DNA of 64,000 bases from Yuukianura sp. NJ FZ-2021 (taxonomy: Eukaryota). Positions within the stretch are counted from its first letter, which is position 1; each line of letters starts with the position of its first letter. The stretch spans positions 1,488,001-1,552,000 of the forward strand of contig CM102284.1 in NCBI GenBank assembly GCA_046563655.1. The letters are read 5' to 3'. The translations under genes were made by a program, and so were the position numbers. The notes under the pieces were generated by a model. It saw nothing but the letters and a program-made list of their open reading frames with translations, was not told the origin of the DNA and made no database searches. Below, one piece after another: positions 1 to 61,133 of the stretch.

Positions 1-1143
1 CCTTGTTCGTCCAGAATGTAAATCAGAACTCCTTTGGCCGGTTTTCCCACACTCGTCGTCACTGCCGTTCCTTTGGATATCCGGCAAACCGCCGCCAAAA
101 ACATCTCCGTTGAACCATATACATTGTACACCGTGAAATTAGCTTCGTCCATTCTGATTCGTTGTGGATTGAGTCGTGCACCGCCGACAAAAACCCAACG
201 AAGAGTCGTCATTTTGTCTACATCTTTTGCCATTAGGAGTTCGAGCAGAGGTGTCGGAAAAGCGGCGGCGGTAATACCACGTTCAGTAATCCATGACCGG
301 TATTGATCGATATCGAGCTTCACTTCTCGTGCCGGTATGACCAGTGTACCGCCTTTTGTGAAAACTGGCCAGATATCGCATAACGACACAATGAAACTTA
401 TGGAGACTCCCATGGCACTCCGCATATCGCTTGTGAATGTCTCCGGATCTGTTTCTACAAGCGTTTCGATTGCCGCGACAACAGAACTGTGCCGAACTAG
501 CACAGCCTTCGGGGTTCCTGTCGATCCAGAAGTAAACAAGCAGTAGGCGACGCCTTCCAGCGCTTCAGCGTCTTCTTCATAAATTTCTTCAACGTCTTTG
601 TTGGTTGCTGGAAAAACAAATGACGTTTAAAAAAATGGTAAGGTTAGGCTAACACTAAAAATTTTTTTGAAAATAATTTTTAAAAAATTTCACACGTTTT
701 GGTGACGATGGTATCCCAGCACAACTCATCCATTCCAGATTGTCTTGAGTGAAATGAAGATTTGGATAAGCATGTCCGAATTCAGTGTTCAGAGTGTCCC
801 ATTTGACTTGTGTCGTTACAACTGGCGGGAAATTGAGCATCTTTAAGCATTTCTGGACTTGGGCGCCAGGGTAGTTGTCATGGAGAACTACAACAATTTT
901 GTTGACATAGAGCGTTGCCAGGGATGACACTATGTATTTGATCCCTCCAGAAACGAGTGACACCACAAATGGATTCCGAGTGAATCCGAGTTCATATTTT
1001 TTTGCAAATGCTGTCACTTTGTCGTGCAATTCTGCGTAAGTCCAACTCCGATTGAATTCATCTTCCACAGCGATTTTAGACGGAAACGCTTGCACGGTTT
1101 GTTCAAAAATTTCCCAGATCGTAGATTCTTTAACAGTAGTCAT
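1..1143 (-). CDS. NRPS-like adenylation-domain protein, 5' part (runs off the left edge); exons 1143-696 and 607-<1
   Basis: Spliced translation shows A1 'WTYAEL', A3 'AYCLFTSGSTGTPKAV', A4-like 'SISFIVSLCDIW', 'VFVGGARL', A5 'YNVYGSTE' and 'SVGKP...IYILDE'. The GT..AG intron 695-608 (phase 1) preserves frame. Confidence 0.9.
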
Positions 1144-2051
1144 CCTGAAAGTGGTTAAAAATCGCTTGAAACTAGCTTTTAAAAACTGGAACTAAAAAAA
1201 AAATTTTTTTTTGTCGAAATTTAGAAAACCTAGCACACTTTCTTTGGATTGCATCGTACCGTTGCAAGGTTTTGTTGCACGTCAGAATGTAATTATGTAA
1301 TGGATTGGAACGGGTTTTATTCACAAAAAAAAATTTTTCAAACACTCAGAATGTTTCTGAAACTTCAAAAGCGGTCTTAAGCGATAACAAGGCTTTTTAC
1401 GACCTTTATACTCTTCTTATACAAAAGAAAGATAAAAATTGGAACCTAGCCTTACTAACGACAAAAGAATAAACATAATCTTTCTTAAACCAAACTGTTC
1501 AAACATCAAGAACTGAAAAAAATTGGACTTTGTTTGACACAGATACTCATTGTCATTACAAGAAATTTTATACAAGGCTATCTAAATTTAAAAAAAAAGT
1601 TTTTCTTTTTAAATTTCACAAAATAGAAAAACGAGATTTTTGATGTTCAACTTATTTGAATAATTTCAAAATATATCATTGTCATTTTTCCTCGTATTTT
1701 TTTTATAATTTTTTTCACAAATTGTTTAATTTAAGTTAGCTCACATAGTATGTCCAACTTGTGTGCCAAATCAAAAACTCCGTTTATATGTGCTGAGTAT
1801 TGCAAATATATAGCTGACGATGTTTCACAGAAATGTTATAGTTGGTATAACTGCTCTGTTATTATCGTGATGAAAAACGCGTGAACTTTTGACCTGAAAC
1901 TGCTAACCTAATCAGGGCAAAGTCAACACAAGCTTATAAAACTCCGTTTCAGTGACTTCCACAACTCTCAGTAGATATTCTCTAATGAGGTTCCAGAAAA
2001 ACCTGTTGTGAATTTCAATCAATTTTTGGAAGTTTAAATTTTGAAATAAAA

Positions 2052-3366
2052 ATGGAGATTTATGAGGTTGTTGTCATTGGAGCTGGAATCATGGGATCAA
2101 GTGCTGCTTACTACGCCTCAAAAAATTCTGGTTCCAAGGTTTTGCTACTAGAACAATTCGACCGGTTGCATCGTAGAGGTTCAAGTCACGGGGATAGCCG
2201 GTAAAAAAACACAAAATTAAAAAAAAATGAAAAATCAAACTTGTTTTTTTTTTCAGAATTATTCGCTATGCCTATCCTGAGGATTTCAATGCTTCTCTAA
2301 TGCCAGGCGCCTACAAAGCATGGGCTCAAATCGAGTTAGAATCAAACACAAAGGTGGGAGAGAATTTTTTGAAAAATAGTTTCTAAATATTTTTCTGAGC
2401 GGTCATCTTTTTCAAAATATTTGTTTTTTTTAGCTTTTTACAAAAACTGGGAGTTTGTCAATCGGAAAAAAAGATCACCCGGATATCCAATCAACTTTGA
2501 AAAATTTCCAAAAATTTAAAATTCCTTACGAAATTTTTACTCCTGCCACAATTGGATTTAAATTTCCCACGATTCGTCTTCCAGAAAGTCACGTCGCTCT
2601 GTATCAAAAAGATGGCGGGATGCTCAATGCCTCCAAAGCTGTTGCGACAATTCAATTACTTGCAGAGAAGAATGGCTGCAAATTTTTAGACAACGCACCA
2701 GTGCTAAAACTTGCGGTTCAAAAATTCCCGCACAAAAATGTTCCAGAACTCGTCAGAATTGAAACGCCTAGAGGGATTTTTTACTCTAAAAAATGCATCG
2801 TGACTGCAGGCGCTTGGACCCAAAAATTGCTCAAGGAAAATGTGAATGCCGACATTCCTTTACAGCCACAACAAACGACAATCGGATATTTTCGAGTCGA
2901 GGAACCAAACCGGTACTCCAGTTCGAACTTTCCGGTTTTTCTGGCATATTCTGAAGATGAGAAGGCTTTGTCGGTTTACGGACTCCCGGCATTGGAGTAT
3001 CCGAACATGCTCAAATGTGCTGGAGATACTGGAATACAGTGTGATCCAGACGGGAGGACATTTGAGCCTGATTTGAACGGAATTTTGAACTCCGCGGGAA
3101 CTTTTTTGAAACAATTTTTTATTGGTGTTGCTGAAACACCTACGCTGATGGAGAGTTGCATGTACACGCTGAGTCCAGATCGTAACTTTATTATTGACAT
3201 TTTACCGGGAAGTAACATTGTGGTTGGATGTGGATTTAGTGGACACGGATTCAAATTAGGTCCACTCATTGGCAACATTTTGACCCAACTTGCAACTACT
3301 GGAATTCATCCATATCTGCATGTAATTCCACATTTTTCGGTCAGTCGTTTCAAAAATAAGTTGTAA
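2052..3366 (+). CDS. PIPOX-like: Peroxisomal sarcosine oxidase / L-pipecolate oxidase-like FAD enzyme; exons 2052-2200, 2257-2353, 2434-3366
   Basis: N-terminal '[15 protein letters not shown]' FAD motif, '[14 protein letters not shown]', '[14 protein letters not shown]' (Cys at the covalent-FAD position) and '[11 protein letters not shown]'. Ends in -NKL (PTS1-like). Two GT-AG introns in frame. Confidence 0.92.
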
Positions 3367-20378: not shown

Positions 20379-22670
20379 CTACTCTGTTAGTGATAAGGTT
20401 TCCAATTCGATGCAATTGATTTCATCAATGGACTGATGCTCAGCAGTGCTAGTTTTTGCCATTGATTTCGAAGTATTTATGTGACGTGTTAGTTTGCACT
20501 GGATTTTGATGTTGCGGAAACTAAACTTATTTCTACGCTCCCAAAGAAATATCAGAGATGCCGCTGCTAGAAGCGGCAACAAAATAAAAAATGCAACTCT
20601 GATTTTGTCAGACAAAGCAATTTCCTTGACATTTGGCCCAGTTACTGCTACATACCTTTTCTTCATTTCCTTCAAAAAAATTTGCAAGTCGTCCAAGTTT
20701 TTCCAAAATTTAACAATTCCTGCTTCCTGTACTCTCTTTAGACGAGGTCGAATGTTTCGCTCATGCAAATCCCAAAGTACCCAACCAAATACTCTACTCC
20801 ACAAGCTGTCTTGGCCTTTGGACACTAATTTTGCATTAGGATCTTGATATGACGTTGTCCAAAGACGGTATTCCGAATCTATCACATCTGACCATTCCAC
20901 AATTGCCGTACCGTTACAACTCTTGAGCAATGTCGTTAGCTCAAACTTTTCACCATCAAATGCTAGAAACTGTTCCGGAATTTTTAGCTGCTTGGCAACT
21001 GATTTCACCGTTTGAGACACCTTGGTGGTATTGGATACCAAAAATTGCTGTATTGATGCTGCAGGACACGTCGAATTGCGTAACGAGGCTCGTATAATTG
21101 GAAGTAAGCTGCTCCACCATATCGTAGCCCATACACTGCTGAGTGGTGAAAATGCATGGCCACAATGTTCCGCTGAATTTTGCTGAAGGTTTTTGAACTG
21201 AGAAACTGGCCGCACATAGATAGTTTTATTGAGCATAATCAAGTGTTGGAAAGTCGTAGCAAGTGGTATCAGCCTTGGAGATGTAATAATTGCAGTCATT
21301 ATGCTCCTATATCCATTTGTAATTACTACAAATGTAAGCAAAGTTGCACCCAGAATCCAATACATCTGGTTGTAGCGACCAGGATTTAGAGCAGAAGCGA
21401 AGCTATGTTCTAACAGTGTAGAGTACATAGTGGTAAAACCATCGCATCTTTTTTTCTTCCATTTTAAAATCAAATTTGCCGTTTTTCCAGCGACAAGCAT
21501 TGCAACTACTAGAGCAATCCAGACTTCTTTGGAACAGGGAACGATTAGGCTCGTAAAATCTGAAGTTTCATCTAGCCTGATACCGCATGCCAAGAATCGA
21601 AAAGCCAATTTACTCGTCTGTAGATTAACGTTGTAGCCAGTATGAAAGAAAACCACAGGATGGCTATAATACGTCATATTTTGTGCGCCTAAACAACTTA
21701 TGCTATTAATCCAAATCAAACTTTTGTTGGTGAGCACTGTTTGAAGTAGAATAGGTTCCCAAGAACCGTTTTGGTAAGATTTTGCAGTAAGATAGTTTGG
21801 TTTTTGTATGTTTTCCGCACTATCATCCCAGGTTTTGCTTGTAGCTTTTATAACAGCCAGTGTTCCAAGCTGGTTATCAACGTATTCAAACATTTGCTTA
21901 ATGTATGCCAAGGAGTATTGTGTAAGTTCAAGGGGAATCAATGTAAAATTACACGTTTCACAGTGTGGGCAAATTATGTTAACCTCTGAAATTCGAATTT
22001 TGACGGTTTGGCCTTGTTTATTAGCTCTAGTGATCGATTCGATTTGTTGTGTTGTATTAGACACACCTTGTAAGTGGTAAACCATAAAGTACTTGATGCC
22101 ACAACGTTCAAGAAGATGTGTTCCCAGTAGTCGAGCGGCCATGTACCAGTTGGTAGCTAGCTGTAGAATCTTTGGTCCTACCAAAGTAAATATTGAAGAA
22201 GAACCGTAAACAACTTCAGCAGGTTCGGTAACCATCGCGTATGTAGGTTCACGCCAATACTGCAAATAGAACTGTAAGTTGGTTGGAAATTGAAAGCTTG
22301 GGCTGTAGAACGTACCAAGTGTGCCTGGAGTTTCAACTAGGAAAACGTAGTTGACACATTTGTAGTACCGTGAGTGTGCGTATTTGAAAAATATTTCTGT
22401 TGGTAAGGAGCTGTAGTAGCCTTCAACATACTTCTTAGTGTTGAGATTGAATCCATATTTGTAACGAATGTCTTGAAATGTGGCGGGAAACGTAAATGGT
22501 TCAAGATCGGTGTTGTTGTAGTTGATTAAGTGAATGTGACATTCGGTACTGAATGGCTCAAACCATTTGTTCAAGTCCAACCGCCGAAATTCCTTGTTTG
22601 ACTCAACTACAAATACTTGGAGAATAAGCAGTATCAAAGTTGCAATCACCAACACTGTATTCTTCCACAT
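20379..22670 (-). CDS. Divergent ionotropic-receptor (IR)-like chemoreceptor, intronless, copy 1
   Basis: Signal peptide from the ATG at 22670; M1 'PCSKEVWIALVVAML'; M3-like 'TFVVITNGYRSIMTAIITSP'; S2 end 'LKRVQEAGIVKFW'; final TM helix. This is the iGluR/IR topology. Confidence 0.8.
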   Translation of the reverse strand: MWKNTVLVIATLILLILQVFVVESNKEFRRLDLNKWFEPFSTECHIHLINYNNTDLEPFTFPATFQDIRYKYGFNLNTKKYVEGYYSSLPTEIFFKYAHSRYYKCVNYVFLVETPGTLGTFYSPSFQFPTNLQFYLQYWREPTYAMVTEPAEVVYGSSSIFTLVGPKILQLATNWYMAARLLGTHLLERCGIKYFMVYHLQGVSNTTQQIESITRANKQGQTVKIRISEVNIICPHCETCNFTLIPLELTQYSLAYIKQMFEYVDNQLGTLAVIKATSKTWDDSAENIQKPNYLTAKSYQNGSWEPILLQTVLTNKSLIWINSISCLGAQNMTYYSHPVVFFHTGYNVNLQTSKLAFRFLACGIRLDETSDFTSLIVPCSKEVWIALVVAMLVAGKTANLILKWKKKRCDGFTTMYSTLLEHSFASALNPGRYNQMYWILGATLLTFVVITNGYRSIMTAIITSPRLIPLATTFQHLIMLNKTIYVRPVSQFKNLQQNSAEHCGHAFSPLSSVWATIWWSSLLPIIRASLRNSTCPAASIQQFLVSNTTKVSQTVKSVAKQLKIPEQFLAFDGEKFELTTLLKSCNGTAIVEWSDVIDSEYRLWTTSYQDPNAKLVSKGQDSLWSRVFGWVLWDLHERNIRPRLKRVQEAGIVKFWKNLDDLQIFLKEMKKRYVAVTGPNVKEIALSDKIRVAFFILLPLLAAASLIFLWERRNKFSFRNIKIQCKLTRHINTSKSMAKTSTAEHQSIDEINCIELETLSLTE

Positions 22671-23159
22671 GCTTATTTGTGAACAGAATGGCAAGTATTT
22701 TTGCTGAATATTTTGACCGTCATTTCAAGCGCAGTGCGGCAACGCGTAGCACCTTGAGAAATAAAGTCAAGTGAAAAAGAATTTTCTCTTTTGATTTTTT
22801 TTTCATCGTTGTGATGGCTATTTACATAAGATAAGTTCCATAGATATCTTGCATGGCTTGCTTGTCTTTTATGTCCACATGACACAGACTTACCTATTTC
22901 CCATTTGGACATTTTTCACTTCTTGTTTTGGTGTTATGTGCCATAGTGTGTTTACTCAACTTTAATGTAGGACGAGGCAGAATTTGAGTATCAACTATGT
23001 CACAAGGTCGCTTTTTAAAACTATTTTTTATTAGCGAAGGGTTTCAATAAGCTGTACATAACTTGGGAAATGAGTCATAATGAGGGATATGTTTTAACCG
23101 AACTTGGAAAAACGTTTAGCAAGGTCACCTTACGCCTGAAAATTGATTGATTATACTTG

Positions 23160-24110: not shown

Positions 24111-26354
24111 TTAGTTGTCAGTGACTTCAATACTGCACAAATGCTTAGATGTGCTAGGTTTTACCAATACCTTCCAACTATTGGTGCCGCGTATTTGTTG
24201 GCTTTGTTTTTTGATTTTGCGGAAATTAAACTTATTTCTACGCTCCCAAAGAAATAGGAGAGATGTCGCTACTAAGAGTGGCAACAAAATGATAAATACA
24301 ACTCTGATTTTGTCAGACAAAGCAATTTCCTTGACATATGACCCAGCTACTGCCACATGGCGTTTCCTTACTTCCTTTATAAAAATTTGCAAGTGGTCCA
24401 AGTTTTTCCAAAATTTAACAATGCCTGCTTCCTGTACCCACTTTAGGCGAGGTCGAACGTTTCGGTCATGCAAATCATAAAGAGCCCAACCAAATACTGT
24501 ACTCCACAAGCTGTCTTGGCCTTTGGACACTAATTTTGCATTAGGATCTTGATCTGACGCTGTCCAAAGCCGATATTCCGAATCTATCACATCTGACCAT
24601 TCCACAATTGCCGTACCATTACAACTCTTGAGCAATGTCGTCAGCTCAAAGTTTTCACCATCCGTTGCTAGAAACTGTTCCGGAATTTTTAGTTGCTTGG
24701 CAACTGATTTCACCGTTTGAGATACCATGGTTGTATTAGATGCGAAAAATTGCTGGATTGATGCTGCAGGACACGTTGAATTGCGTAACGAGGCTTGCAT
24801 AATTTGATGTACGCCGCGCCACCATATCGTAGCCCATACGCTGCTGAGTGGTGCAAATGCATGGCCACAATGTTCCGCTGAATTTTGCTGAAGATTTTTG
24901 AACAAGGGAACTGGCCGCACATAGATAGTTGTGTTGCGCATGATTAAGTGCTGGTAAGTTGTAGCCAGCGGTATCTGCCTTGGGGATGTAATAATTGCAG
25001 TCATGATGCTCTTATATCCATTTGTAATTACGACAAATGTAAGCAAAGTTGCGCCCAGAATCCAGTACATTTGGTTGTAGCGACCAGGATTTAGAGCAGA
25101 AGCGAAGCTATGTTCTAACAGTGCAGAGTACGTAGTGGTAAAACCGTCGCATCTTTTTTTCTTCCATTTTAATACTATATTTGCCGTTGTCCCAGCGACA
25201 AACATTGCAACTACTAGAGCAATCCAGACTTCTTTGGAACAGGGAACGATTAGGCTCATAAAATCTGACGTTTCCTTCAGCCTGATACCGCATGCCATGA
25301 AACGAAAATCCAATTTACTCGTCTGTAGATTAACATTGAAACCCATATGAAAGAAAACCATAGGGTTCAAATAATGCAGCATATCGTGTGTTCCTAAGCA
25401 ATAAACCCTATAGGTCCAAATCAAACTTTTGTTGGTAAGTACCGTTTGCAGTAAAATTGGTTCCCAGGTACCCTTTTTGTAAGATTTTGTTGTAAGATAT
25501 TTCGGTTTTTGTATCTTTTTCTTACTGTCATCCCAAGTTTTGCTTGTAAATTTGGTTACCCCTAGTATTCCAAGCTGGTTATCGACGTATTCAAACATTT
25601 GGTGAATATATTTCAAAGAATATTGACTATGCTCAAGGGGAATCAATGTAAATTTACACGTTTCACAGTGTGGGCAAATTATGTTTACCTCTGTAATTAG
25701 AATTTTGCCGACGTTTTTGACTTGGGTAGTGATAGATTCCATTCCTTGCGTTGTACTAGTCACACCTTGTAAGTAGTAGACCATAAAGTACTTGATGCCA
25801 CCACGTTCAACAAGGACCCCAAGTAGTTTAGCAGCCACGTACCAGCTAGTAGCTATTTTTAGAATCTTTGGTCCTACCAATGAAAATATTGAAGATGAAC
25901 CGTAAACCTCATCAGCAGGATCGGTGTCCGCGTCGTATTTAATTCCACGCCAATACTCAAAATAGAACCACAAGTTGGTAGGAAATGGAAAGCTTGGGCT
26001 GTAAAACGTACCAAGTTGGCCTAGAGTTTCAACTACGAAAACGTAGTTGATACATTTGTAGTACCGTGAGTGTGCATATTTGAAAAATATTTCGGTTGGT
26101 AAGGAGTTGTAGTAGCCGTTAGTATACTGCTTAGTTTCATGATTGTACCCATATTTGTATCGGATGTCTTGAAAGGTGGCGGGAAACATAAATGGTTCAA
26201 GCTCTGTGTTGTTGTAGTTGATTATGTGGATGTGACATTCCGTACTGAATGGCTCAAACCATTTGTTCAAATCTAACCGCCCAATTATCGACGTTGATTT
26301 ACTTACAAATCCTTGGAACGTAAGTATTACTACAATCCAAATCCACGAAGCCAT
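24111..26354 (-). CDS. Divergent IR-like chemoreceptor, intronless, copy 2 (747 aa)
   Basis: Full-length paralogue of 20379-22670 with the same motifs. Confidence 0.8.
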   Translation of the reverse strand: MASWIWIVVILTFQGFVSKSTSIIGRLDLNKWFEPFSTECHIHIINYNNTELEPFMFPATFQDIRYKYGYNHETKQYTNGYYNSLPTEIFFKYAHSRYYKCINYVFVVETLGQLGTFYSPSFPFPTNLWFYFEYWRGIKYDADTDPADEVYGSSSIFSLVGPKILKIATSWYVAAKLLGVLVERGGIKYFMVYYLQGVTSTTQGMESITTQVKNVGKILITEVNIICPHCETCKFTLIPLEHSQYSLKYIHQMFEYVDNQLGILGVTKFTSKTWDDSKKKIQKPKYLTTKSYKKGTWEPILLQTVLTNKSLIWTYRVYCLGTHDMLHYLNPMVFFHMGFNVNLQTSKLDFRFMACGIRLKETSDFMSLIVPCSKEVWIALVVAMFVAGTTANIVLKWKKKRCDGFTTTYSALLEHSFASALNPGRYNQMYWILGATLLTFVVITNGYKSIMTAIITSPRQIPLATTYQHLIMRNTTIYVRPVPLFKNLQQNSAEHCGHAFAPLSSVWATIWWRGVHQIMQASLRNSTCPAASIQQFFASNTTMVSQTVKSVAKQLKIPEQFLATDGENFELTTLLKSCNGTAIVEWSDVIDSEYRLWTASDQDPNAKLVSKGQDSLWSTVFGWALYDLHDRNVRPRLKWVQEAGIVKFWKNLDHLQIFIKEVRKRHVAVAGSYVKEIALSDKIRVVFIILLPLLVATSLLFLWERRNKFNFRKIKKQSQQIRGTNSWKVLVKPSTSKHLCSIEVTDN

Positions 26355-27813
26355 TACGCCTGTGTATTAATGTATTAATTTAGAAAAGTTTTTTTTAACT
26401 TCCAAGTAAAGTTTTACTGATTCAGACAATTATAACTGAAATTTTCGACGAGAAAGAATTGATCAAAAGCTTCAGCTTACAACGGCAGCATTCTTAATTT
26501 TTTATAAATAATATTCTGTTGCTATCAAACATATTTATCGCGTGCAAAGACAAAAACCTTTTCCAATTTCTAAATTGCTAATGTGTTATGTGACTAAAAA
26601 TGTTCACGGGAGGCATTTTTTCTTTAAAATTATATAAACATTAGGTAATTGTTTTTTTTAAAGTTCCATAGATGTTAGTTTATTTCTAAAAGTGAATATG
26701 GTGTAGAGCGCGTTAGTATTATAAATAGAATTGTGAAGAAATTTTACTCGGAAATATGGCAATTTTTTTTGCAAATTCCTAAGCTGTCATTTTTTCCCAG
26801 TGTTCTGTAAACTATTGCATAAACGAAACCTTACGTTGAAGTGGTTTGCATAAGAACTCCAATGGGTTTGAGATGTCACTGTCAATCCAGTCTAACCTTG
26901 ACGGTAACCAATGTACCAAAAGAAAGTCTATCAGTTGTAGGTTTGAGAGCAAAAAATATTTTAATCGTGCCTTTTGTTAGTCATCGAAACTCCATAACTG
27001 TAAAAGCAAAGTGAAGATGTCCTCAAGTACTCACAGTACGTTTATGTCACTTATCAAAAAAGAAAATTTAAAATACAATTTGATTATTATATAATAATTC
27101 CAACTTTGCACAAAACTTTTACCATCGGAGTACCACAATGAACCAAGCTCGAAGTTCCCGCTGTTTAATTTAAAATGGAAAACAGAATGAATCTTAAGGT
27201 TTTCTTTTAAATAAATTTTTGTTTAAAACTAACATTTATGTAACAAAAAATATATTCATTTTTGAAGTACTGTGCCGTTGGAAAGTTTGTTTTGTGGCGT
27301 CGCGAATTATTTGTAAGTAATGCTGTGTCAAATTGAATTTCTGCTCAAAACGATTCAAATTTTTCGAAATTATATTTTGATAAAATTTACTATATACATG
27401 CTGATTGCTGATGTAATTTGAGTATATTCTCATTCCAAATGTTGTGAACCATGTGCGACCTTCAAACACAATTACGAGGAGGGTTTGTGGGTCTAAAAGT
27501 TATCTCTATGCATACTATATCTTCCAGTCTCAAGTATGTGAAACACGCAAACGAAACAGTTGATTACACAGTGGAACTCAAAACGAAAATTTATCTATCA
27601 AAAATACATATTTAAAGCTATTCAGAATTAAAAAAGAATACAGTCCGTATTTACAAAAAAAATTGCAAAAATAGTTCCAGTTTTAAGTAAACTTACAGTT
27701 ACGTGCCAGTTGGCTTTCAAATTGCGAGTCTTTTTCCACTATATACTAAAAACAATTACAGGACAAATTCGTTTTTTTTTTCAAAATTCGAAAAAAATTT
27801 TACTAGGAACAAC

Positions 27814-29289
27814 ATGGAACTACTTCAAATTGTTCTTGGTTTGATTTTGATTGTGATCGGCCTCGTCTTAAGTCTAATTCTGTTCATGGTGTGGTCTTTT
27901 ACGAAACTATTCGACTCTATTCAACCATACGAACTATCAGCTGATTCGGCAACATCACAAGCAATTCCGTCTGGCTCAAAAGAACCGAATCCACTTTTTC
28001 GCTACTTTCCGCACTTGCGTAAGAAAATAGCCTGGGAAGAACTGGGAGTATATCCGACCCCAATTCACTCTGCATATTTGGATTTAAATGGCCGCCGAAT
28101 TTCGTTTTGGATGAAACGAGAAGACTTAAGCAGTCCAATTTACGGCGGAAACAAAGTCCGCACACTTCAGTATCAAATTCCGGCCTGCGCAGCTCGAGTT
28201 GCCGAAGATCCAGGAGCACAAATTTTCGTCGTAGGGAGTGGCGGTTCAAATCAAGTTGTTGCGACATTAGCCCATGGTACTCCATTCGACCTCAAATTTC
28301 ACGTGGCTTATGCAGCTCCGGATGCACCCGATTTGGACAACACACTGAACTTACTTTCTGCACTGTCTCTTGGACCGCTAAGTTTGAAACTCTGGGACAA
28401 AGTTTTACCGCAAGTCAAACGATTAGTGATGGCCGCTACGTCAAAACGAGATAAAGTATTTGGAATGGGCGGAAACAGTTTGGGTGGGATTTTGGGCCAA
28501 ATTGGCGGAGCACTTGAATTGGCAGAACAAATTGAGGCTGGCGAAATTCCTGACGTGGATGAAATTTATTTGCCGTTAGGATCTGGCTGTACCACAACTG
28601 GACTCATTCTGGGTGTTTGTTTGGCACGACATTTGAATCTCAAGGCTTTTCGCTCTAAAAATTTCAAAATTGTGAGTATTCTAATCCATGGTGGATTTGC
28701 TGGGCTTAATCGAAAAACGAACTTCATTAAAGGCTGGATGGGAAAATTTTTATTTGTGTCACCACAATTTGGAATTCCGCGAACAGCAGCGTTTTTGAAA
28801 AAACACACAGGGATTGATCTGGAAGCGTCTGCACTAAAGTTTGTCCAAGAAGAATGGGAAGTCGTTGATTGTCCGGATTACATTGGGGAATATGGAGCAC
28901 ATTCTGAAAAAAGTGCAACTGCGTCTGCGCATGATCACAAACTGGTTGTTAACGGCCCATGTCCATCCTGGATATCCTCGGAATCACCACCACAACCTTG
29001 GCTGTGCGGCCACTTTACTGGAAAATCTTTTGCGGTAATGCTTGATCGCTTAGAAAAATTGAGCGAAGGTTCAGAAATCAACGCTCTTCTCTGGCAAACG
29101 AAAAGCAATGTACAACCGCTTGGACCACAGGAGGAATGGGAGGAATTTCAAAAATTGGCAGGAAATTCAAAAATTTTGAAAAAGTGGTCAGATGAAGGCA
29201 AAGCGACGTCGGTTTTACGGCCTGGACAAGTCAATGTAGAAGGTGGAAATACAGGAGACTACAGACCGCTCATGAAGAAAATTTTTTAA
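27814..29289 (+). CDS. PLP-dependent ACC deaminase / D-cysteine desulfhydrase-family protein with N-terminal membrane anchor, intronless CDS (491 aa)
   Basis: 'LGVYPTPI', 'KREDLSSPIYGGNKVRTL' (PLP lysine), 'GSGGSNQ' and 'LPLGSGCTTTGL' (phosphate-binding loop). Hydrophobic N-terminal segment 'LLQIVLGLILIVIGLVLSLILFMVW'. Confidence 0.85.
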   Translation: MELLQIVLGLILIVIGLVLSLILFMVWSFTKLFDSIQPYELSADSATSQAIPSGSKEPNPLFRYFPHLRKKIAWEELGVYPTPIHSAYLDLNGRRISFWMKREDLSSPIYGGNKVRTLQYQIPACAARVAEDPGAQIFVVGSGGSNQVVATLAHGTPFDLKFHVAYAAPDAPDLDNTLNLLSALSLGPLSLKLWDKVLPQVKRLVMAATSKRDKVFGMGGNSLGGILGQIGGALELAEQIEAGEIPDVDEIYLPLGSGCTTTGLILGVCLARHLNLKAFRSKNFKIVSILIHGGFAGLNRKTNFIKGWMGKFLFVSPQFGIPRTAAFLKKHTGIDLEASALKFVQEEWEVVDCPDYIGEYGAHSEKSATASAHDHKLVVNGPCPSWISSESPPQPWLCGHFTGKSFAVMLDRLEKLSEGSEINALLWQTKSNVQPLGPQEEWEEFQKLAGNSKILKKWSDEGKATSVLRPGQVNVEGGNTGDYRPLMKKIF

Positions 29290-42000: not shown

Positions 42001-42883
42001 TTCTTTTTTGAAGCTTTGTCCTGCCAAAGACAAATATGCTTCCAAATTCTTCTTTTTTTCGGCAGAAGATACGCTTGTGCTTTTTTTAATTTAAATTGTA
42101 AACTTAACCTTTACTGAAGATTACTTTGATAATTTTTGATAATTTTTTTTATAAAAGTAGCACTAACGACAAAAAATTCCAAAAGAATCATGCATAATAT
42201 GTTTAGCTAATCAACGTCCTCACCTGTAGGGAGAATTAAAAATATTTTTTGTTGAAATAAATTTTTAGCACTGCTTAGAAGTTGATGAAAAAAAATTTCT
42301 TTGAACATTTTAAGCAAGTTCTTGGAGAAATAAAGTAAAATGACTTCTATCCTATTGAGTGACACAAATGTCACCAAGATGCTGTGCATAAATCTGAATC
42401 CGTGACAAACTCATAGTGACACTGATTTGTTCAGTTTCTCCATTCTACAACCTGAACAGGTTCATTTTTCTGTCACAAACATCAAAAAAGTGGATCCCAT
42501 TTGGCAAAATCACACATTTGATGAAGATGCAACTTCCACATTAGCACTTTTTTGCCTTGTTTTGTACAATTAGGTTTCCCTATTTTCTCAAACCACAAAA
42601 CTCGTTTCTTTAAAGACACCAAACCAAAAAGTTGTTTTTGTTCACCAAATGTTGTTTTGATGATCTCTAAACTGTGTGACACCGGCATGTAGTGCTTGAT
42701 ATTTTAACAACAAAAACTTCTTTTTTTTCCAAAAAGTTACAAAAAATGACCTAATTTTCTTGGTTTAGGTTCAAGACCAGTGGGAAGTTGAACTTGATTT
42801 GATTTTGCACTCGATCGAAACTAAAAAGTAGTAATCAGTGGTTGTCATAATGAGGAGGACGACAGATTCTGAGAATCCGCAAA

Positions 42884-44748
42884 ATGTGGAAATCAGTAGG
42901 AATATTTTTTCTGTCAATTTTGATTAACTTAACAGTGATTCCTGTTTTGAGTTTAATTTTAACTCCGTTTGTCATATTTCGGTTTGTTGTAAAACATTGT
43001 GCAAAATGGTACGCGCCAAATTTGAAATCCATTTTGTCGCCGGGAGTCGTTTCGTCCATAGCAGGGGAAGGCTTCTGTGCAGAACAGAAGAAAACAGGCA
43101 TAATTGCAGTGACATTGAATGGTCGTGTAGATGTTGACCAAGTATGTAACTCGTTCCAGGACAAAGTTTTGTACCGGCGTAACCTTGAAGGTCAATTTCG
43201 TCACCCAGAGTTACAACAGTTTGTAACCAAGTGGTTCGGGCACTATTTCTGGCAAGATGAACCCCAATTTGATATCTCTGCGCATGTGCAGCTTTGGACT
43301 TCTGAAAACCCCGACTCCGTAGTCACGCAGGAGGACTTCAAAACTATTGTAAACGTGATTTTGAAAACGGAGTTTACGCATGAGCAGAGTCCATGGCGGT
43401 TGTACGTTATTCACAACACACGTATTTCAACAGATCCGCCCGGAATTGGGAACAAAACGACATTAGTGTTTCATTTTCATCATGTTTTGGGTGGTGGCGT
43501 GGACGTAATGAGTGAACGCGTACTTCAACCTTGGTTTGAAAATAATTTGACCAATGAGAGCCCCGGAAGTGAAATGGAGTCAGCCGAGCTTAAGCCGAGT
43601 TCACACTGTCACAAATCAGTCAATTGGAGACTCATTCTCAAAATTTTGAAATTTATGACATTTGGAACTTACGATTTTTTGAAAACTTTGATGGACCAAT
43701 CAGAGGCTGTGGATTGGGGCGCGGCTAATGTCAAAACGCAGGTCAAGTGTGAAGGGGACTTGAAAATTCATACGTCTGAATCCGTGTCAACTGCTCATAT
43801 CAATGACATCCGAAGTATTTTTGGAACAAATGTAATTTCAATTGTGTTGGTAGCTTATGCTGGAGCTCTGCGCAGATTCATGATTCAACACTTGATTAAA
43901 CTGCCATCCAGTGTAACTTGTACTGTTCAAATGGAGCGTCGAAGTAACATTGAATCAAGTGAATTCGGATGCTCAAGGTAAGACAAATCTAAATTTCTAC
44001 GCGCATCTCCTTTTTTTTATTATTATAAACTCATATTTTTCTCAATTAGCCACCAAAATTTGAAAAAAAAATTGGAACTTAGATTTGCTGAAACAAAACT
44101 TTCAATAGAAACGACAGAAAATTTTCCGGTTTTTTGGTAAACTAATTTTTGATTTTTTGATAAAAGTGATTTGCAGTTGCTCGTGAGGCTTCCAATTGAT
44201 GAATTGGATTCAACGAGTGCAAAAGAGCGAATTCGATTGATTCAAAAAAATCTCAGCAGAGCTTCACATTCTACAGAGCCTCTGACAAGGTTGCTGTTCC
44301 ACAATGCACTTGGTTTCCTTCCGTCAAATTTTGGGCGCCAAAATTTGCAAAATTTGGTTTCAAAGTATCTCTGTTCCGGAACTTCGCTTCTAACAGTTTT
44401 AAATGCAACGGACAAAAAAATCTTATGCAACTCCGAGGTTGTTGGAATTTTTCCTTTGGAAAAGTGTTCAGTCCCTGGCTTATTAGGTTAGTCACACTAA
44501 CTTTCTCAAATTGAAACTTAAAATTTCATTACAAAAAAAATATTAAATATAACTCTAAAAGATTTCTTTTCACTGAACATATTTCAGGACCTTCACTACT
44601 ATGCAACGTGTATGGAAATTCAGCTCAGTTTATTTTGTGCATGGACTCAAGTGTTATGCCCTCAACGCTTCCACTGAAGGACCTCAACACTTTTATTTTC
44701 AAGGAGTTAAATGATTTATTTAAACTGGATGCTGCTTCATATGTCTAA
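42884..44748 (+). CDS. Wax-ester synthase/diacylglycerol acyltransferase (WS/DGAT)-like protein; exons 42884-43977, 44167-44486, 44588-44748
   Basis: N-terminal hydrophobic segment, 'FWQDEPQFDISAHV', 'SPWRLYVI' and 'LVFHFHHVLGGG' at the position of the HHxxxDG motif. Splice phases are consistent. Confidence 0.75.
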
Positions 44749-54597: not shown

Positions 54598-56555
54598 ATG
54601 AAAAGTTACTCAATTTTATATAATGGAGGCGCAAATTTCAACTTGGTAAATGCTTGGGTTTTGATTTTCGTTACAGCAAGGTTTGTGCCAATTTGACTCA
54701 ACTTTTTTGCATCGCAATTTTTAACCACTTTGTTTCAAATTTGGCATTTGTTTCATTCCTTAGCTTTTTTTTTTGTCTTTTTCCAGCTTAGGAGCGGTAT
54801 ATACGGTAGAGAGTTCGTACGTATACAGATCATACCAAACATCCATTTACTGTAACGCATCAACCAAAATTCAAAAACCTCAAAATGTTCCAGCTCTTCT
54901 CAAAGTTGTTCAACATGCAATCCGAACTGCCCAGCGAATCAAAGTCATTGGATCTTTGTATTCCGCTACAGACATTATCTGTACCAATGGCATTCCGATT
55001 TCAATGGAAAATATCAAAAGTGCGCGTGTCAATTCCGATGGAACAGCAACATTTGGCGCTGGAATTAAACTGTTTGCAGCCATGGAATTTCTAGAAGCCA
55101 GACGCTTGTCTTTAATAACTGTTCCAACATATGGTAATCTCCCGGCATGCATTTGTTTGGACTTAATTTATTATTCATGAGCGGCAAATTTGAAATTGTG
55201 ACATTTTTAGGTGGAATTTCAATCGGTGGTGCCTTGGGAACGGGAGCTCATAGCTCATCACTTCGACATCCAACTTCGCTGTCAGACCAAGTCGTTGCCA
55301 TGACAGTAATAGCAGGCAATGGAACACTAATTAAAATTAGTGGCGATGACCTTGACTTTTTTCGAGTTCACTTGGGGCTTCTGGGGGTCGTTGTTGACGT
55401 AACCTTGAGAACCGTTCCTCTGTTCAAACTGACCGTCGACCATCAACACATAGACGACAGTGGTCTGTTCGACGGTTCGCTTGTTACTGCGGCTGCGCAG
55501 TACGACATCTTCCAGCTCTGGTGGTTCCCACACTCTAAGAACGTTGTCTTGGGAACAGGAACTTTCACTTCGACCAGTACGCCTGGACGTGCATTTTCAA
55601 ATTTTATATCAAACGGACACATGTTGACCTTTGCTACCGCTAATTTGGTTTTCGAATATTTTCAAAACCAGAGGAAGACACAGGCGCTCAACGCTATTGC
55701 AACCTACACAGAGTTGTCTTTACATTCAAGTGTTGTGGGGAAGCCGCCAACTTTTAGCGAAGACGGGCACCTCGTACTCAACCCTGCGACGGGCTACGCA
55801 TGGCGGATGCTTTCAAATACTTGCGACGACAACGTTAATTCGATTAGCTTAAACCGATGTGCTTGGAACGTCGGAAAGTATTCAGTATTTCCCGAACAGG
55901 GTGCAATGGCATTTGACATTTCGCAATTTACAAAAGTTGTGAAAATGATGCGAAATGTCATCAAGAGATACCCTGCAGCGTTTGTTCTCAATGGCATTTA
56001 CATCCGATTTTCGAAATCGTCATCCGCCAAAATGTCAATTGCGAGTGACAGACAGACGTTCACTGTAGAATGGTCAATGCCGATGAGGAAAGATCCGTTC
56101 AATTTTGCACGAGATGGACTTGGCACCATCCAAGCCTTATTACAAGAAATGGTAACGAATTCAAAATTTTGAAAAAACTAACACTTTTTTATTTCGATTT
56201 TCTTAATGTTGGATTTTAGGTAACCAACTATGGCGGTCGTCCACACTGGGGGAAAAATGGGCTGCATTATTTTTCCACTGGGGTTTTAGCCAAAGCAGTT
56301 TCAAATCGCCCAGTCTTTGTAAATGCCATGCGTAGATTTGACCCAGCGGGAATTTTTTTGAACAACTTTGGACACCGTTTGATTGGAGTTTCCGACGAGC
56401 AAGATCGAGATCCAAGAGTGACACATTGTGCACTTCAAGACTACTGCGTCTGTTCGCAGGACAATGACTGTGCATCTACGCAGAAATGCAGTGAAATAAA
56501 TGGGTTTCCGGTTTGTTTAGACGAAGGAAAAATTATAAAGACTTTCAGCAGCTAA
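54598..56555 (+). CDS. L-gulonolactone oxidase-like FAD oxidoreductase copy 1; exons 54598-54680, 54787-55133, 55211-56151, 56220-56555
   Basis: VAO-family FAD domain 'ISIGGALGTGAHSS', 'LGLLGVVVDVTL', C-terminal 'GGRPHWGKN' and 'DPAGIFLN', plus a Cys-rich tail. 1707 nt in frame. Confidence 0.88.
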
Positions 56556-57630
56556 CTGAAGAAAAGTCCTGCCAAAAAGGAAAACATAATTGAAAGAAAT
56601 TATGTTATTCCAGTGAATAGGGTGCGGTGTTTAATGAAAAAAAAATGATGTGCGATTTATTGTAATTTATTTTAATTTTTTGAAAAAAATTTCACCATGT
56701 TCACTCGAAAAGATTTTGTTGTATTTTGCTAGTCATAATACAAAAAACGTTGCTGGTTAGTCATGTTGAAATAATTTGGGAACAAGTACTAATAAAAGCA
56801 TATTTCGCAATTTTTAATACAACTTTACTACCATTTTTCCAGAAAAAAAATGTTTTTGTCGAAAAAAAGCCGTATAATTAAGTAGCGAAAGTAGTTATAG
56901 CCACTTTATGTTTATCCGCCTCTGTCTGTCCGTCGTCAGGATCCTCATTTGCTCAAGTGTTTTTAGCAGGTCTTCCATGGTGCTGCACATTGCTATGCAA
57001 AAATGTTCTAATTCATTGTCGATTGTCATTTTAAGCGTACACACACACCGGTGAAAGGAATTGTAGCAAAACATTAAAACCTGCACTTTGTCACGCGAAT
57101 TCAGTATCACTTGATCCCATAATTCCAGCTCCAATAACAACAACGTAGAAGTTTCGTAGCAGTTCATTCGTAGCATTACGCTTCGGACCAATGGCGTGCT
57201 ACCATTTTACTCATCGCCCAATGGAAACCAATGCTTCAACATTCATTTTTGGCCCAAAGATCGAAACTGTCCACTCTGTTGAAACACTCTGACGCCAAAA
57301 CAAGTTTTGGAAGTTATCTGCTTTCCAATCGTAGTGATTTTGGCAACTAATATTTCTTGCTTTCCGAATGTTAAAGTTCCCATAAGCAGGAGAGCGGAAA
57401 TTTTTGTGTTCATAATAAATTTATGTACTTCGTGTTTCCATTTGTGCACTAATAAGCGCACGCTTGACTGAGCAAAATTGTTTTTTTGTTTTGGTATATA
57501 ATATTGTAGTATTTCTGGATAGAAGCTAATGATAAAACCAACTGTGTGTCTAACAAAATCTCAACAACGAGAGTGTCAACAAAAACAAACAGAAACAAAA
57601 AGTGAACGAAACTATTGTTGTGCAATAAAT

Positions 57631-59574
57631 ATGGAAGAATATTCATCAGTTTTATGTATACGACACAAAAATTTCAAATTGGCCAATTTTTTGGTTTTGA
57701 TCTTCGTGATAGCAAGGTTTGTGTTTTGACTTAGGTTTATTTTTGCTATGAATTTTTTTTATACCCAATTTGTTTCAAATTTTGGGTTTGTTAATTTTTT
57801 TTAACTCTTTTTTTTGTTCTTTTTCTTATAGCTTGGGTACGACAAATAGGGTAGAGAGTTCGTACATATACAGATCTTACCAAACAACAATTTACTGTAA
57901 CGCTTCCACTAAAATTCAAAAACCACAAAATGTTCCCGCTCTTCTCAAGGTCGTTCGACATGCCATTGAAACTGCCCAACCAATCAAAGCCTTGGGATTT
58001 TTGCATTCAATTACTGACATCATCTGTACCAATGGCATTCCGATTTCAATGGAAAATATCAAAAGTGCGCGTGTCAATTCCGATGGAACAGCAACATTTG
58101 GTGCTGGAATTAAACTGTTTGCAGCCATGGAATTTCTAAAAGCCAGACGCTTGACTTTAATAACTGTTCCTACATATGGTAAGTTCGTGCATTTAGAATT
58201 AGCTTTATAATCTACGGGAAATTTAAAATTTTGACATTTTTAGGTGGAATTTCAATTGGTGGTGCCGTGGGAACAGGAGCTCATAGCTCATCACTTCGAC
58301 ATCCAACTTCACTGTCAGACCAAGTCGTTGCCATGACAGTAATCGCAGGCAATGGCACATTAATTGAAATCAGTGGCAATGACCTTGACTTTTTTCGAGT
58401 TCACTTGGGGCTTCTGGGGGTCGTTGTTGACGTAACCTTGAGAACCGTTCCTCTGTTCAAACTGACCGTCGACCATCAACACATAGACGACAGTGGTCTG
58501 TTCGACGGTTCGCTTGTTACTGCGGCTGCGCAGTACGACATCTTCCAGCTCTGGTGGTTCCCACACTCTAAGAACGTTGTCTTGGGAACAGGAACTTTCA
58601 CTTCGACCAGTACGCCTGGACGTGCATTTTCAAATTTTATATCAAACGGACACATGTTGACCTTTGCTACCGCTAATTTGGTTTTCGAATATTTTCAAAA
58701 CCAGAGGAAGACACAGGCGCTCAACGCTATTGCAACCTACACAGAGTTGTCTTTACATTCAAGTGTTGTGGGGAAGCCGCCAACTTTTAGCGAAGACGGG
58801 CACCTTGGACTCAACCCTGCGACGGGCTACGCATGGCGCATGCTCTCTAATACTTGCGACGACGACATTAACTCGGTAAGCTTAAATCGATGTGCTTGGA
58901 ACTTCGGAAAGGATTCACTGCTGCCTGAAGAAAGTTCAATGGCATTTGACATTTCACAATTTACGAAAGTTATGAAAATGATGCGAAATGTGATCAAGAG
59001 ATACCCAGCCTCGTTTGCTCTCAATGGAGTTTTCATCAGGTTTTCTAAATCGTCATCCGCCAAAATGTCAGTTGCAAATGGCAGACAGTCGTTCATTGTA
59101 GAATGGGCAACGCCCATGAGGAGAGATCCGTTCAATTTTGCTCGAGATGGAATTGAAACATTCCAAGTCTTATTGCAAGAAATGGTAAGTAGCACAAATT
59201 CTGAAGAAATTCAAAATTTCTGATTTTTTTAATGTTAGGTAACCAACTATGGCGGTCGTCCACACTGGGGGAAAAATGGGCTTCATTATTTTTCCGCTGG
59301 CGTTTTAGCCCAAACAGTTTCAAATCGCCCTCTCTTCATAAATGCCATGCGCAGATTTGATCCAGCGGGAATTTTTTTGAACAATTTTGGACGCCGTTTG
59401 ATTGGAGTTTCCGACGAGCAAGATCGAGATCCGAGAGTGACACATTGTGCACTTCAAGACTACTGCGTCTGTTCGCAGGACAATGACTGCGCATCTAGAC
59501 AGGAATGCAGTCAAATAAATGGGTTTCCGGTTTGTTTAGACGAAGGAAAAATTAAAAAGACTTTCAGCAGCTAA
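57631..59574 (+). CDS. L-gulonolactone oxidase-like copy 2; exons 57631-57716, 57832-58178, 58244-59184, 59239-59574
   Basis: Recent tandem duplicate of copy 1; retains 'GFLHS' at the covalent-FAD His position; 1710 nt in frame. Confidence 0.88.
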
Positions 59575-59914
59575 CTGAAGAAAAGTCCATGTCCTGCCAA
59601 AAGGAAAAACTTAATTGAAAGAAATTATGTCATTCCAGTGAATTGGGTGCGGTGTTTCATGAAAAAAATTATGTACAATTTATTGTAATTTATTTCAATT
59701 TTTGAAAAAATTTTCAGCATGTTCACTCGAAAAGATTTTGTTGTATTTTGCTAGTCATAATACAAAAACGTTCCTGGTTAGTCATGTTGAAATAATTTGG
59801 GAACAAGTACTAATAAAAGCATAATTCGCAATTTTTGATACAACTTTACTACCATTTTTCCAAAAAAAAAAAAAAAAAGTTTTTGTCGAAAAAAAAGCCG
59901 TATAAATTAAGTAG

Positions 59915-60515
59915 TATGAGGGATGACAGACAAGGATATCCGATCCTTGCCTGCCCTCAAATAAATGAACAAACAGACACCGATACCAAACGATTTGTGT
60001 GCTACGATTTATTTATAAATCGTAGCCATAACTCTAAACAGAAAATGAGCCCACTCCGGGCTAAACCAAACAATAATGGGCCTTAAGGGCCTAAACCAAA
60101 AGTACCGGGGGAAAGGAGGGGAACAAGCCACTACCTGGCCTTTGACCACTAACTGGCCATGGCCACTAACTGGCCGAAACCACTACCTGGCCTCAAGGAG
60201 ACGTAGAGTGTCCAGTGACCTTACGTGACCCTTGGTCAGGCGGAAGATAGTTGTGGTGACGATGGCGGCGTGGCAGGAGAGAGGAGATGTTGCTGCTGCG
60301 GCTGCTGCATCCGGAGTCGGAATTGAAGTACGTGGCTCGTGCCACTTCTTCCTCTGCTTCTGCTTCTTCTCCAATTTGAACTGTGGGAGGCGGGAAGCGG
60401 GGAAACACTTATGGGCATTGCCCTACTTATATTTTTAATTGTTTTTAACTATTTTATATTTTTAACTTAGCTTATGTTTTTAATTAGTTAACTATTTGAG
60501 GATCATATCCTCACA
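59915..60515 (-). mobile_element. Solo LTR-like insertion (601 bp) with 4-bp target-site duplication GTAG
   Basis: The empty site is preserved in the duplicated unit (aattaAGTAGcgaaag, ~56876-56891). The filled site reads GTAG|TATGAGGGAT...ATATCCTCACA|GTAG. Minus strand starts TGTGAGG, has imperfect terminal inverted repeats, AATAAA near its 3' end and internal CCACTA(A/C)CTGGCC repeats. Confidence 0.8.
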
Positions 60516-61133
60516 GTAGCGAAAGTAGTTATAGTCACTTTGTGTTTTATCCGCATCTGTGTGTCCGTCGTCAGGACACTCAATTGCTCAAGTGTTTTTA
60601 GCAGGCCTTAAATGGTGCTGCACATTGTTATGCAAAAATTCTCAAATTTGTTGTCGATTGTCATTTTAAGCGTTAAGTCACTGGTGTGAAAGCAATTGTA
60701 GCAAAACATTAAAACTTGCATTTTGCCACGCGTAGTCGGCATCGATGCTGACTCCCTTCGCGCAACAACATTCTGCTGGCAGAAAGGAGTACGTTTTTCC
60801 CACGACTAAAAATGGGTCCATTTTCCTTAACATTTCCATATTCATTTAACTCTGTGTGAAATTTTGAATAAATCAAGCATTAATCAATTAATTAATTAAT
60901 TAATTAATTATATATTGTTATTATATTCCTAGATATATTGTTGCCTCTATTGTGTCGATGGTATCTAAAAGTTCCAGTGGACTTGTTTCTTTAACATGGG
61001 CCAATAGATGAATTCTTAGTTGTCGATGTAATCTTAATTAACGTGAGACACGTGGAAATTTTGATATAAACTGGACTTCAAACTTGTATAAATGTGAGTG
61101 GTGTATGTATTACTCCATTTTCAAAACTTGAAA

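Follow-up and report, generated by a model that had tools for sequence, protein, structure and literature searches.

The window (the whole stretch of 64,000 nucleotides analysed) contains at its left edge, on the minus strand, the 5' part of a gene for an adenylation enzyme, which is arranged head-to-head with the gene of an FAD-dependent oxidase on the plus strand (~900 bases between the start codons). The visible part of the adenylation-enzyme gene comprises its first ~351 codons (149 + 202) in two exons, the rest being located beyond the left edge. The features considered at this locus are:

696..1143, minus strand: exon 1 of the adenylation-enzyme gene, comprising 149 codons and one base from the ATG at 1143-1141 (open reading frame and its translation)
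608..695, minus strand: putative spliceosomal intron, 88 nt, phase 1, GT-AG (GTGTGA...TTTGTTTTTCCAG; read directly from the sequence)
1..607, minus strand: exon 2, cut by the left edge of the window, encoding A3 to A5 and all specificity positions but the tenth
507..533, minus strand: A3 core motif TSGSTGTPK, intact (translation and script)
369..404, minus strand: A4 region SISFIVSLCDIW (translation and script)
105..125, minus strand: A5 motif NVYGSTE, intact (translation and script)
390..392, minus strand: isoleucine (codon ATT), equivalent of GrsA Asp235 (phmmer pairing, chained alignments and script)
375..377, minus strand: aspartate (GAT) of LCDIW, GrsA position 240 (column tally)
93..263 plus codons in A4, minus strand: codons of the specificity pocket with GrsA positions in brackets, i.e., Ile 390-392 (235), Val 387-389 (236) and Cys 378-380 (239) in A4, followed by Ala 261-263 (278), Phe 189-191 (299), Gly 183-185 (301), Val 120-122 (322), Leu 96-98 (330) and Ala 93-95 (331)
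2052..3366, plus strand: FAD oxidase of the MSOX/PIPOX family (PF01266), exons ~2052-2201, 2255-2356 and 2440-3366

Both exons of the adenylation-enzyme gene match the PF00501 profile above its cutoff of 29.9 bits, assigning the product to the AMP-binding enzymes of the ANL superfamily: the minus-strand open reading frame at 655-1143 covers profile positions 1-98 (E 1.4e-10, 41 bits) and exon 2 covers positions 156-359 (E 8.8e-35, 120.6 bits). The GT at 695-694 served to place the putative end of exon 1; the acceptor of the 88-nt intron is pyrimidine-rich, and a script check showed the frame to stay open across the 695-608 join, with 202 more codons devoid of a stop. Both exons are also backed by tblastn with a related protein of 805 amino acids (P0002, see below), residues 17-155 of which align to 1155..736 (41 % identity) and residues 163-359 to 587..6 (54 % identity).

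Translation of the minus strand between 3 and 620 yields ...AYCLFTSGSTGTPKAV...MGVSISFIVSLCDIWPVF...NVYGSTE.... Exon 1 additionally encodes WTYAEL (1027-1044) and VVLHDNYP (868-891), which we take to be A1-like and A2-like motifs, respectively. The succession WTYAEL, VVLHDNYP, TSGSTGTPK, SFIVS and NVYGSTE corresponds to the consensus motifs A1-A5 in their usual order. Judged by these core motifs, the gene encodes an NRPS-type adenylation domain of bacterial style. The intactness of A3 and A5, on which the first-pass annotation had relied, was confirmed, with A5 (105-125) located outside the span 340-545 discussed there. The GT-AG intron and the animal-type neighbours are best read as indicating a gene resident in the animal, i.e., in a springtail-type genome.

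The exons of the neighbouring oxidase gene were delineated from springtail and fly homologues (tblastn). Its product is similar to MSOX structures (E ~4e-37); the best named relatives are proteins of Orchesella and Allacma (44-45 %) and of sciarid flies, followed by animal peroxisomal sarcosine oxidases (~30-35 %). On the basis of these homologies, the oxidase is classified as a springtail-type paralogue of sarcosine/pipecolate oxidases.

Directly beyond the oxidase, a tandem array of UDP-glycosyltransferase-type genes (PF00201, PF06722, PF04101) extends on the minus strand from 3924 to ~17000, with exon-sized open reading frames every ~3 kb. At higher coordinates on the same strand, two tandem intron-less open reading frames (20379-22724 and 24111-26366) encode proteins of 781 and 751 amino acids that are 77 % identical to each other. 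Neither of them matched a Pfam family or a PDB sequence, and hydrophobic stretches suggest that they may be membrane proteins. On the plus strand, an open reading frame at 27691-29289 encodes a 532-amino-acid protein with a PLP-dependent (PALP) domain and an N-terminal extension of ~115 residues, which weakly resembles D-cysteine desulfhydrase/ACC deaminase (E 4e-07). Also on the plus strand, a 375-amino-acid open reading frame (42854-43981) matches the catalytic domain of wax-ester synthase/DGAT with a score equal to the Pfam threshold (23.6 bits), and three tandem sets of open reading frames at 55138-62741 contain FAD_binding_4 and ALO (arabinono/gulonolactone oxidase-type) domains.

In large protein searches, P0002 (54 % identical over the fragment, 226 bits) was the sole close relative of the adenylation domain among the matches listed. 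Word-index searches returned no match between P0002 (226 bits) and 121 bits, and per-domain scoring assigned 225.2 bits to P0002 and 91.5 bits to the next best of ~1090 domain matches. In the representative search, the best 150 matches were filled by multi-module NRPSs, the domain scores of which are summed, such that single-domain relatives below ~220 bits were not visible. A metagenome scan with P0002 yielded 10 loci, the best of them 36 % identical over a partial stretch, and no family member; in the Protein Atlas, generic A-T-R clusters only were found. The literature search on springtails and Collembola retrieved no paper on such an NRPS-like gene, and the gene type is not described in the accessible parts of three papers on animal NRPSs (PMC10531068, PMC11869996, PMC11050029).

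The A4 region deviates from the canonical motif at the aspartate. In phmmer comparisons with PDB sequences, F-I-V-S pairs with F-D-G-S in structures of linear gramicidin synthase (LgrA), and the aspartate downstream of the isoleucine pairs with the Asp in A-L-D-I-F of the same synthase. The isoleucine codon is flanked by Phe 393-395 on one side and by Val 387-389 and Ser 384-386 on the other (script, minus strand). GrsA numbering was transferred from the fragment (P0001) via a Phe-type domain (P0202, 1187-1358) to 1amu_A; through these two chained alignments Ile77 of the fragment arrives at 1amu residue 235, and fragment residues 77, 78, 81, 120, 144, 146, 167, 175 and 176 correspond to 1amu positions 235, 236, 239, 278, 299, 301, 322, 330 and 331, respectively. 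The first-pass annotation had placed an isoleucine (codon 390-392) at the equivalent of GrsA Asp235, which is borne out by the phmmer pairing, the chained alignments and the script.

For column tallies, the fragment was aligned to 1105 A-domain stretches from 388 proteins. Position 235 is occupied by D in 1057 of these stretches (V 10, gap 9, G 9, A 7, L 5, S 4, I 2, C 1, F 1); the isoleucine therefore represents a rare, non-chance departure. The two Ile cases are P0002 and P0066, the latter having an Asp right after its Ile. The LCDIW aspartate was considered as an alternative position-235 residue and is ruled out: it resides five places on in the ordinary acidic column 240 (E 770, D 153, Q 87; n = 1105), and the domains contributing to this column also keep Asp235. 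The alignment thus upholds the premise of the first-pass annotation, with the isoleucine at residue 235. As a check of the columns, 15 classical specificity codes were looked up among the aligned domains, where 11 were found exactly; two of the remaining four match at 8/9, one at 6/9 and one at 5/9 positions.

Two bases must differ to turn an Asp codon (GAT/GAC) into ATT (Ile), which excludes a single-base sequencing error as the source of the isoleucine. The codon is also covered by a contig (X3, record 17; 237-407) with 0 differences, which probably derives from the source sample and is not independent. The isoleucine is kept in P0002, the A4 region of which reads SFIASLSDIW. Among the best 100 domains after P0002, 98 possess Asp235 and 2 possess Gly, indicating that the loss of Asp235 is derived within an Asp-bearing, amino-acid-type NRPS lineage; most of the nearest domains after P0002 have leucine-type codes.

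Extraction of the ten-residue specificity code, as proposed by the first-pass annotation, was possible for nine positions (I-V-C-A-F-G-V-L-A), since the tenth (Lys517) lies off the window. The visible code is uncharged, mostly aliphatic and free of acidic residues, and the code of P0002 (IASTSGLIG) likewise contains no acidic residue. According to the available text of 10.1101/559534, the alpha-amino group is held by a salt bridge with Asp235, and the substrates of most characterised domains devoid of this residue are aryl, keto or hydroxy acids. For keto-acid A domains, the accessible portions of PMC10949194 and PMC13643306 report an aliphatic residue at 235 and replacement of Asp235 by "a hydrophobic residue", respectively. 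What the first-pass annotation had given as established on the loss of Asp235 agrees with these three sources, as far as their available text extends. Since no visible pocket residue is able to supply a counter-charge and Ile occupies position 235, an acid without a free alpha-amino group is favoured. An unusual, non-alpha-amino carboxylate as predicted substrate is therefore a reasonable inference.

An amino-type substrate could nevertheless be bound in a non-canonical manner in the absence of Asp235, e.g., an N-alkylated or cyclic amino acid, a betaine, a beta-/omega-amino acid or a SAM-like compound. SAM (ClbH-A2) and glycine betaine are named in the available text of 10.1101/559534 as substrates of A domains without Asp235, the nearest relatives of the present A domain are all of the amino-acid type, and the adjoining oxidase belongs to the sarcosine/pipecolate/N-methyl-amino-acid oxidase family. 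However, the pockets of the window gene and of P0002 lack an acidic residue and are not aromatic-rich, rendering such a substrate unlikely. The glycine betaine reductase ATRR was rejected as a family assignment on similar grounds: the portion of 10.1101/559534 available describes a pocket with an aromatic cage (F201, W204, W270) plus E304, for which neither IVCAFGVLA nor IASTSGLIG offers a counterpart (positions 236/239 are V/C in the window and A/S in P0002, with the ATRR residues tentatively mapped by their spacing).

Assignment to a 2-oxo acid is narrower than to an acid without a free alpha-amino group. A rule in the parts of the literature available states that the rest of the code of keto-acid domains resembles the code for the cognate amino acid. 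When the other 8 positions were compared with 664 distinct codes, the best match was 4/8 for the window and 5/8 for P0002 (D-A-S-T-type), whereas 151 of 200 random codes used as a baseline find a partner at 6-7/8, which may argue against the narrower keto-acid call. Further points against it are the pocket positions common to the window gene and P0002 (1 among the 8 remaining) and the KR domain, which is present in the bacterial keto-acid modules described in the accessible part of PMC13643306 and was not found in P0002 by the Pfam search for the ketoreductase family.

In P0002, Pfam matches follow the order PF00501, PF13193, PP-binding (18.5 bits, cutoff 20.8) and PF07993 (NAD_binding_4), corresponding to A-T-R; PF01370 is also matched, and the sequence ends inside the R domain. 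P0002 retains A7 and A8, the A10 lysine in the context PTGKIDR and the glycine-rich nucleotide-binding motif of the reductase (GATGFLG). By analogy, the window gene presumably has the layout A-T-R as well (adenylation, carrier, thioester reductase). The best 60 PDB matches are all NRPS or NRPS-like adenylation proteins, with no aryl-acid ligase or CAR structure among them. Against the model for amino acid adenylation domains (TIGR01733, cutoff 317.4), P0002 scores 243.8 and the window fragment, being partial, 123.5.

Further known families were considered and rejected. P0002 scores 197.6 with the Lys2 alpha-aminoadipate reductase model (TIGR03443, cutoff 1030.1) and 98.2 with that of bacterial carboxylic acid reductase (NF041592, cutoff 1300), the reductase part alone matching in the latter case. 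Ebony and ACSF4-U26 (AASDH) are set apart at the level of domain content: the accessible part of PMC10531068 gives them a C-terminal region that is no thioester reductase, and P0002 ends in NAD_binding_4. By the tests made, the enzyme is accordingly regarded as an isolated orphan lineage outside Lys2, CAR, ATRR, Ebony and AASDH.

The uniformly hydrophobic pocket and the A-T-R order of P0002, which is that of carboxylic acid reductase-type enzymes, would also suit a plain aryl, aliphatic, fatty or 2-hydroxy acid instead of a 2-oxo acid, in a manner resembling fungal NRPS-like aryl-acid reductases; aryl and hydroxy acids are among the substrates of domains without Asp235 in the available text of 10.1101/559534. 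This possibility is considered rather unlikely, since an aliphatic residue at 235 is specifically tied to keto acids in the accessible portions of PMC10949194 and PMC13643306, the CAR model covers just the reductase part of P0002 (98.2 vs. 1300 bits), and aryl-acid ligases and CAR are missing from the 60 best PDB matches. It overlaps with the preferred explanation and differs from it in the substrate subclass alone.

The preferred explanation, held to be moderately probable, is an animal-resident, NRPS-like A-T-R carboxylate reductase whose acid substrate carries no free alpha-amino group, the leading candidate being a 2-oxo acid. In the proposed reaction sequence, the carboxylic acid, possibly a 2-oxo acid, would initially be adenylated and subsequently be loaded as a thioester onto the enzyme's own carrier domain, from which NAD(P)H-dependent reduction would release it in the form of an aldehyde or alcohol. 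Substrate class, A-T-R order of the window gene and reductive release are each inferred. Basidiomycete A-T-R enzymes may act on phenylpyruvate, but a literature search on adenylate-forming reductases with phenylpyruvic acid found nothing relevant, and the preferred explanation does not draw on such enzymes.

A diverged second copy of the A-domain exon (228-637; ~83 % identical) is present on contigs of four sequencing runs (X1-X3, X5) from two studies. One of these runs is labelled as another organism, and in it the oxidase region is ~96 % identical. For the copy, 21 differences are listed at 315-378 and 416-426, and none is listed at 379-415, where differences private to one run may nevertheless occur. 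In the flanks (315-378 and 416-456; between residues 55 and 102), 17 codons are changed; residues 70-80 are unchanged, the change at Cys81 is silent, and the LCDIW aspartate is replaced by glutamate (D82E). With 11 of the 17 changed codons being nonsynonymous, relaxed constraint is also possible, which speaks against the preferred explanation.

The isoleucine might accordingly reflect lost constraint in a gene that is decaying or that survives, without catalytic function, as a relic of an NRPS module gained by horizontal transfer. Besides the nonsynonymous changes, the score of P0002 below the cutoff of the amino acid adenylation model (243.8 vs. 317.4) and the pocket codes of the two homologues, which have drifted apart (1/8 common), would fit such a relic. 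It is judged very improbable, given the 351 open codons in two exons with a frame-preserving intron, the recognisable motifs A1-A5, and the retention of A7, A8, A10 and the reductase nucleotide-binding motif in P0002. Moreover, P0002 retains Ile and the A4 core with an overall identity of 54 %, and no change is listed in 379-415 amid the ~16 % divergence of the second copy.

One contig of run X1 joins 1167 to 2022, which hints that the diverged copy keeps the head-to-head pair of A-domain and oxidase genes with a different spacer. As a sign of a functional link between the two genes this junction is weak, the copies being close relatives, and a chemical link between the A-domain enzyme and the oxidase is at present a guess. 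With this in mind, one may speculate that the A-T-R gene and the oxidase gene form a two-gene, animal-encoded pathway composed of one foreign and one native gene. The oxidase would convert an N-alkyl or cyclic amino acid to an imino/2-oxo acid, from which the reductase without Asp235 would then make a reactive 2-oxo- or amino-aldehyde. Small molecules specific to springtails would be built from this aldehyde, perhaps with tailoring by products of the adjacent glycosyltransferase array. Such a cassette is regarded as improbable.

If the putative carboxylate reductase is active, arthropod metabolism would gain a step from carboxylate to aldehyde. The loss of Asp235 as such is a well-described signature known from microbes and does not constitute a new principle.

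Bacterial 2-keto-acid (Ak) domains of cereulide and cryptophycin synthesis (accessible part of PMC13643306; rule in the available text of PMC10949194) are similar to the window gene in the NRPS A-domain fold and motifs as well as in the aliphatic/hydrophobic residue at 235. They differ in being embedded, according to the same excerpts, in C-A-KR-T modules of assembly lines, whereas P0002 is a stand-alone A-T-R protein without KR. In further contrast to the Ak domains, the window gene resides in an animal genome, contains an intron, and the rest of its code matches no amino-acid code well. With one module and a small pocket, it represents a tractable case for the rule "aliphatic 235 = keto acid" outside bacteria.

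In case of fungal ATRR (A-T-R1-R2; available text of 10.1101/559534) and its nematode homologues (accessible part of PMC11050029), the similarity comprises a single module, an A domain without Asp235 followed by carrier and thioester reductase (the order here being that of P0002), and the occurrence of homologues in animals. The ATRR pocket is described there as formed by an aromatic cage and a glutamate, in contrast to the small, aliphatic pocket of the window gene with no acidic residue.

The closest full-length relatives of P0002 are two bacterial (cyanobacterial) stand-alone A-T-R proteins, P0271 and P0272 (~30 % identity over 92 %). Unlike the window gene and P0002, they keep Asp235 and have a proline-like code (DVQFIAQVV). 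By this code, P0271 and P0272 are candidate proline reductases forming prolinal. Fungal Lys2 and bacterial CAR share the common A-T-R logic (adenylate, thioesterify, reduce), but P0002 belongs to neither family.

Only a small number of animal-encoded NRPS-type enzymes have been characterised; in the portions of the literature available, these are Ebony, ACSF4-U26, the nemamide enzymes, springtail ACVS, nematode ATRR and mollusc FmtATR. The last of these, from the bursatellin pathway (accessible part of PMC11869996), is also an animal-encoded, intron-bearing A-T-R enzyme thought to be of foreign origin. It is distinguished in that text by an N-terminal formyltransferase and a tyrosine-activating A domain, whereas the window gene starts with the A domain, which is devoid of Asp235.
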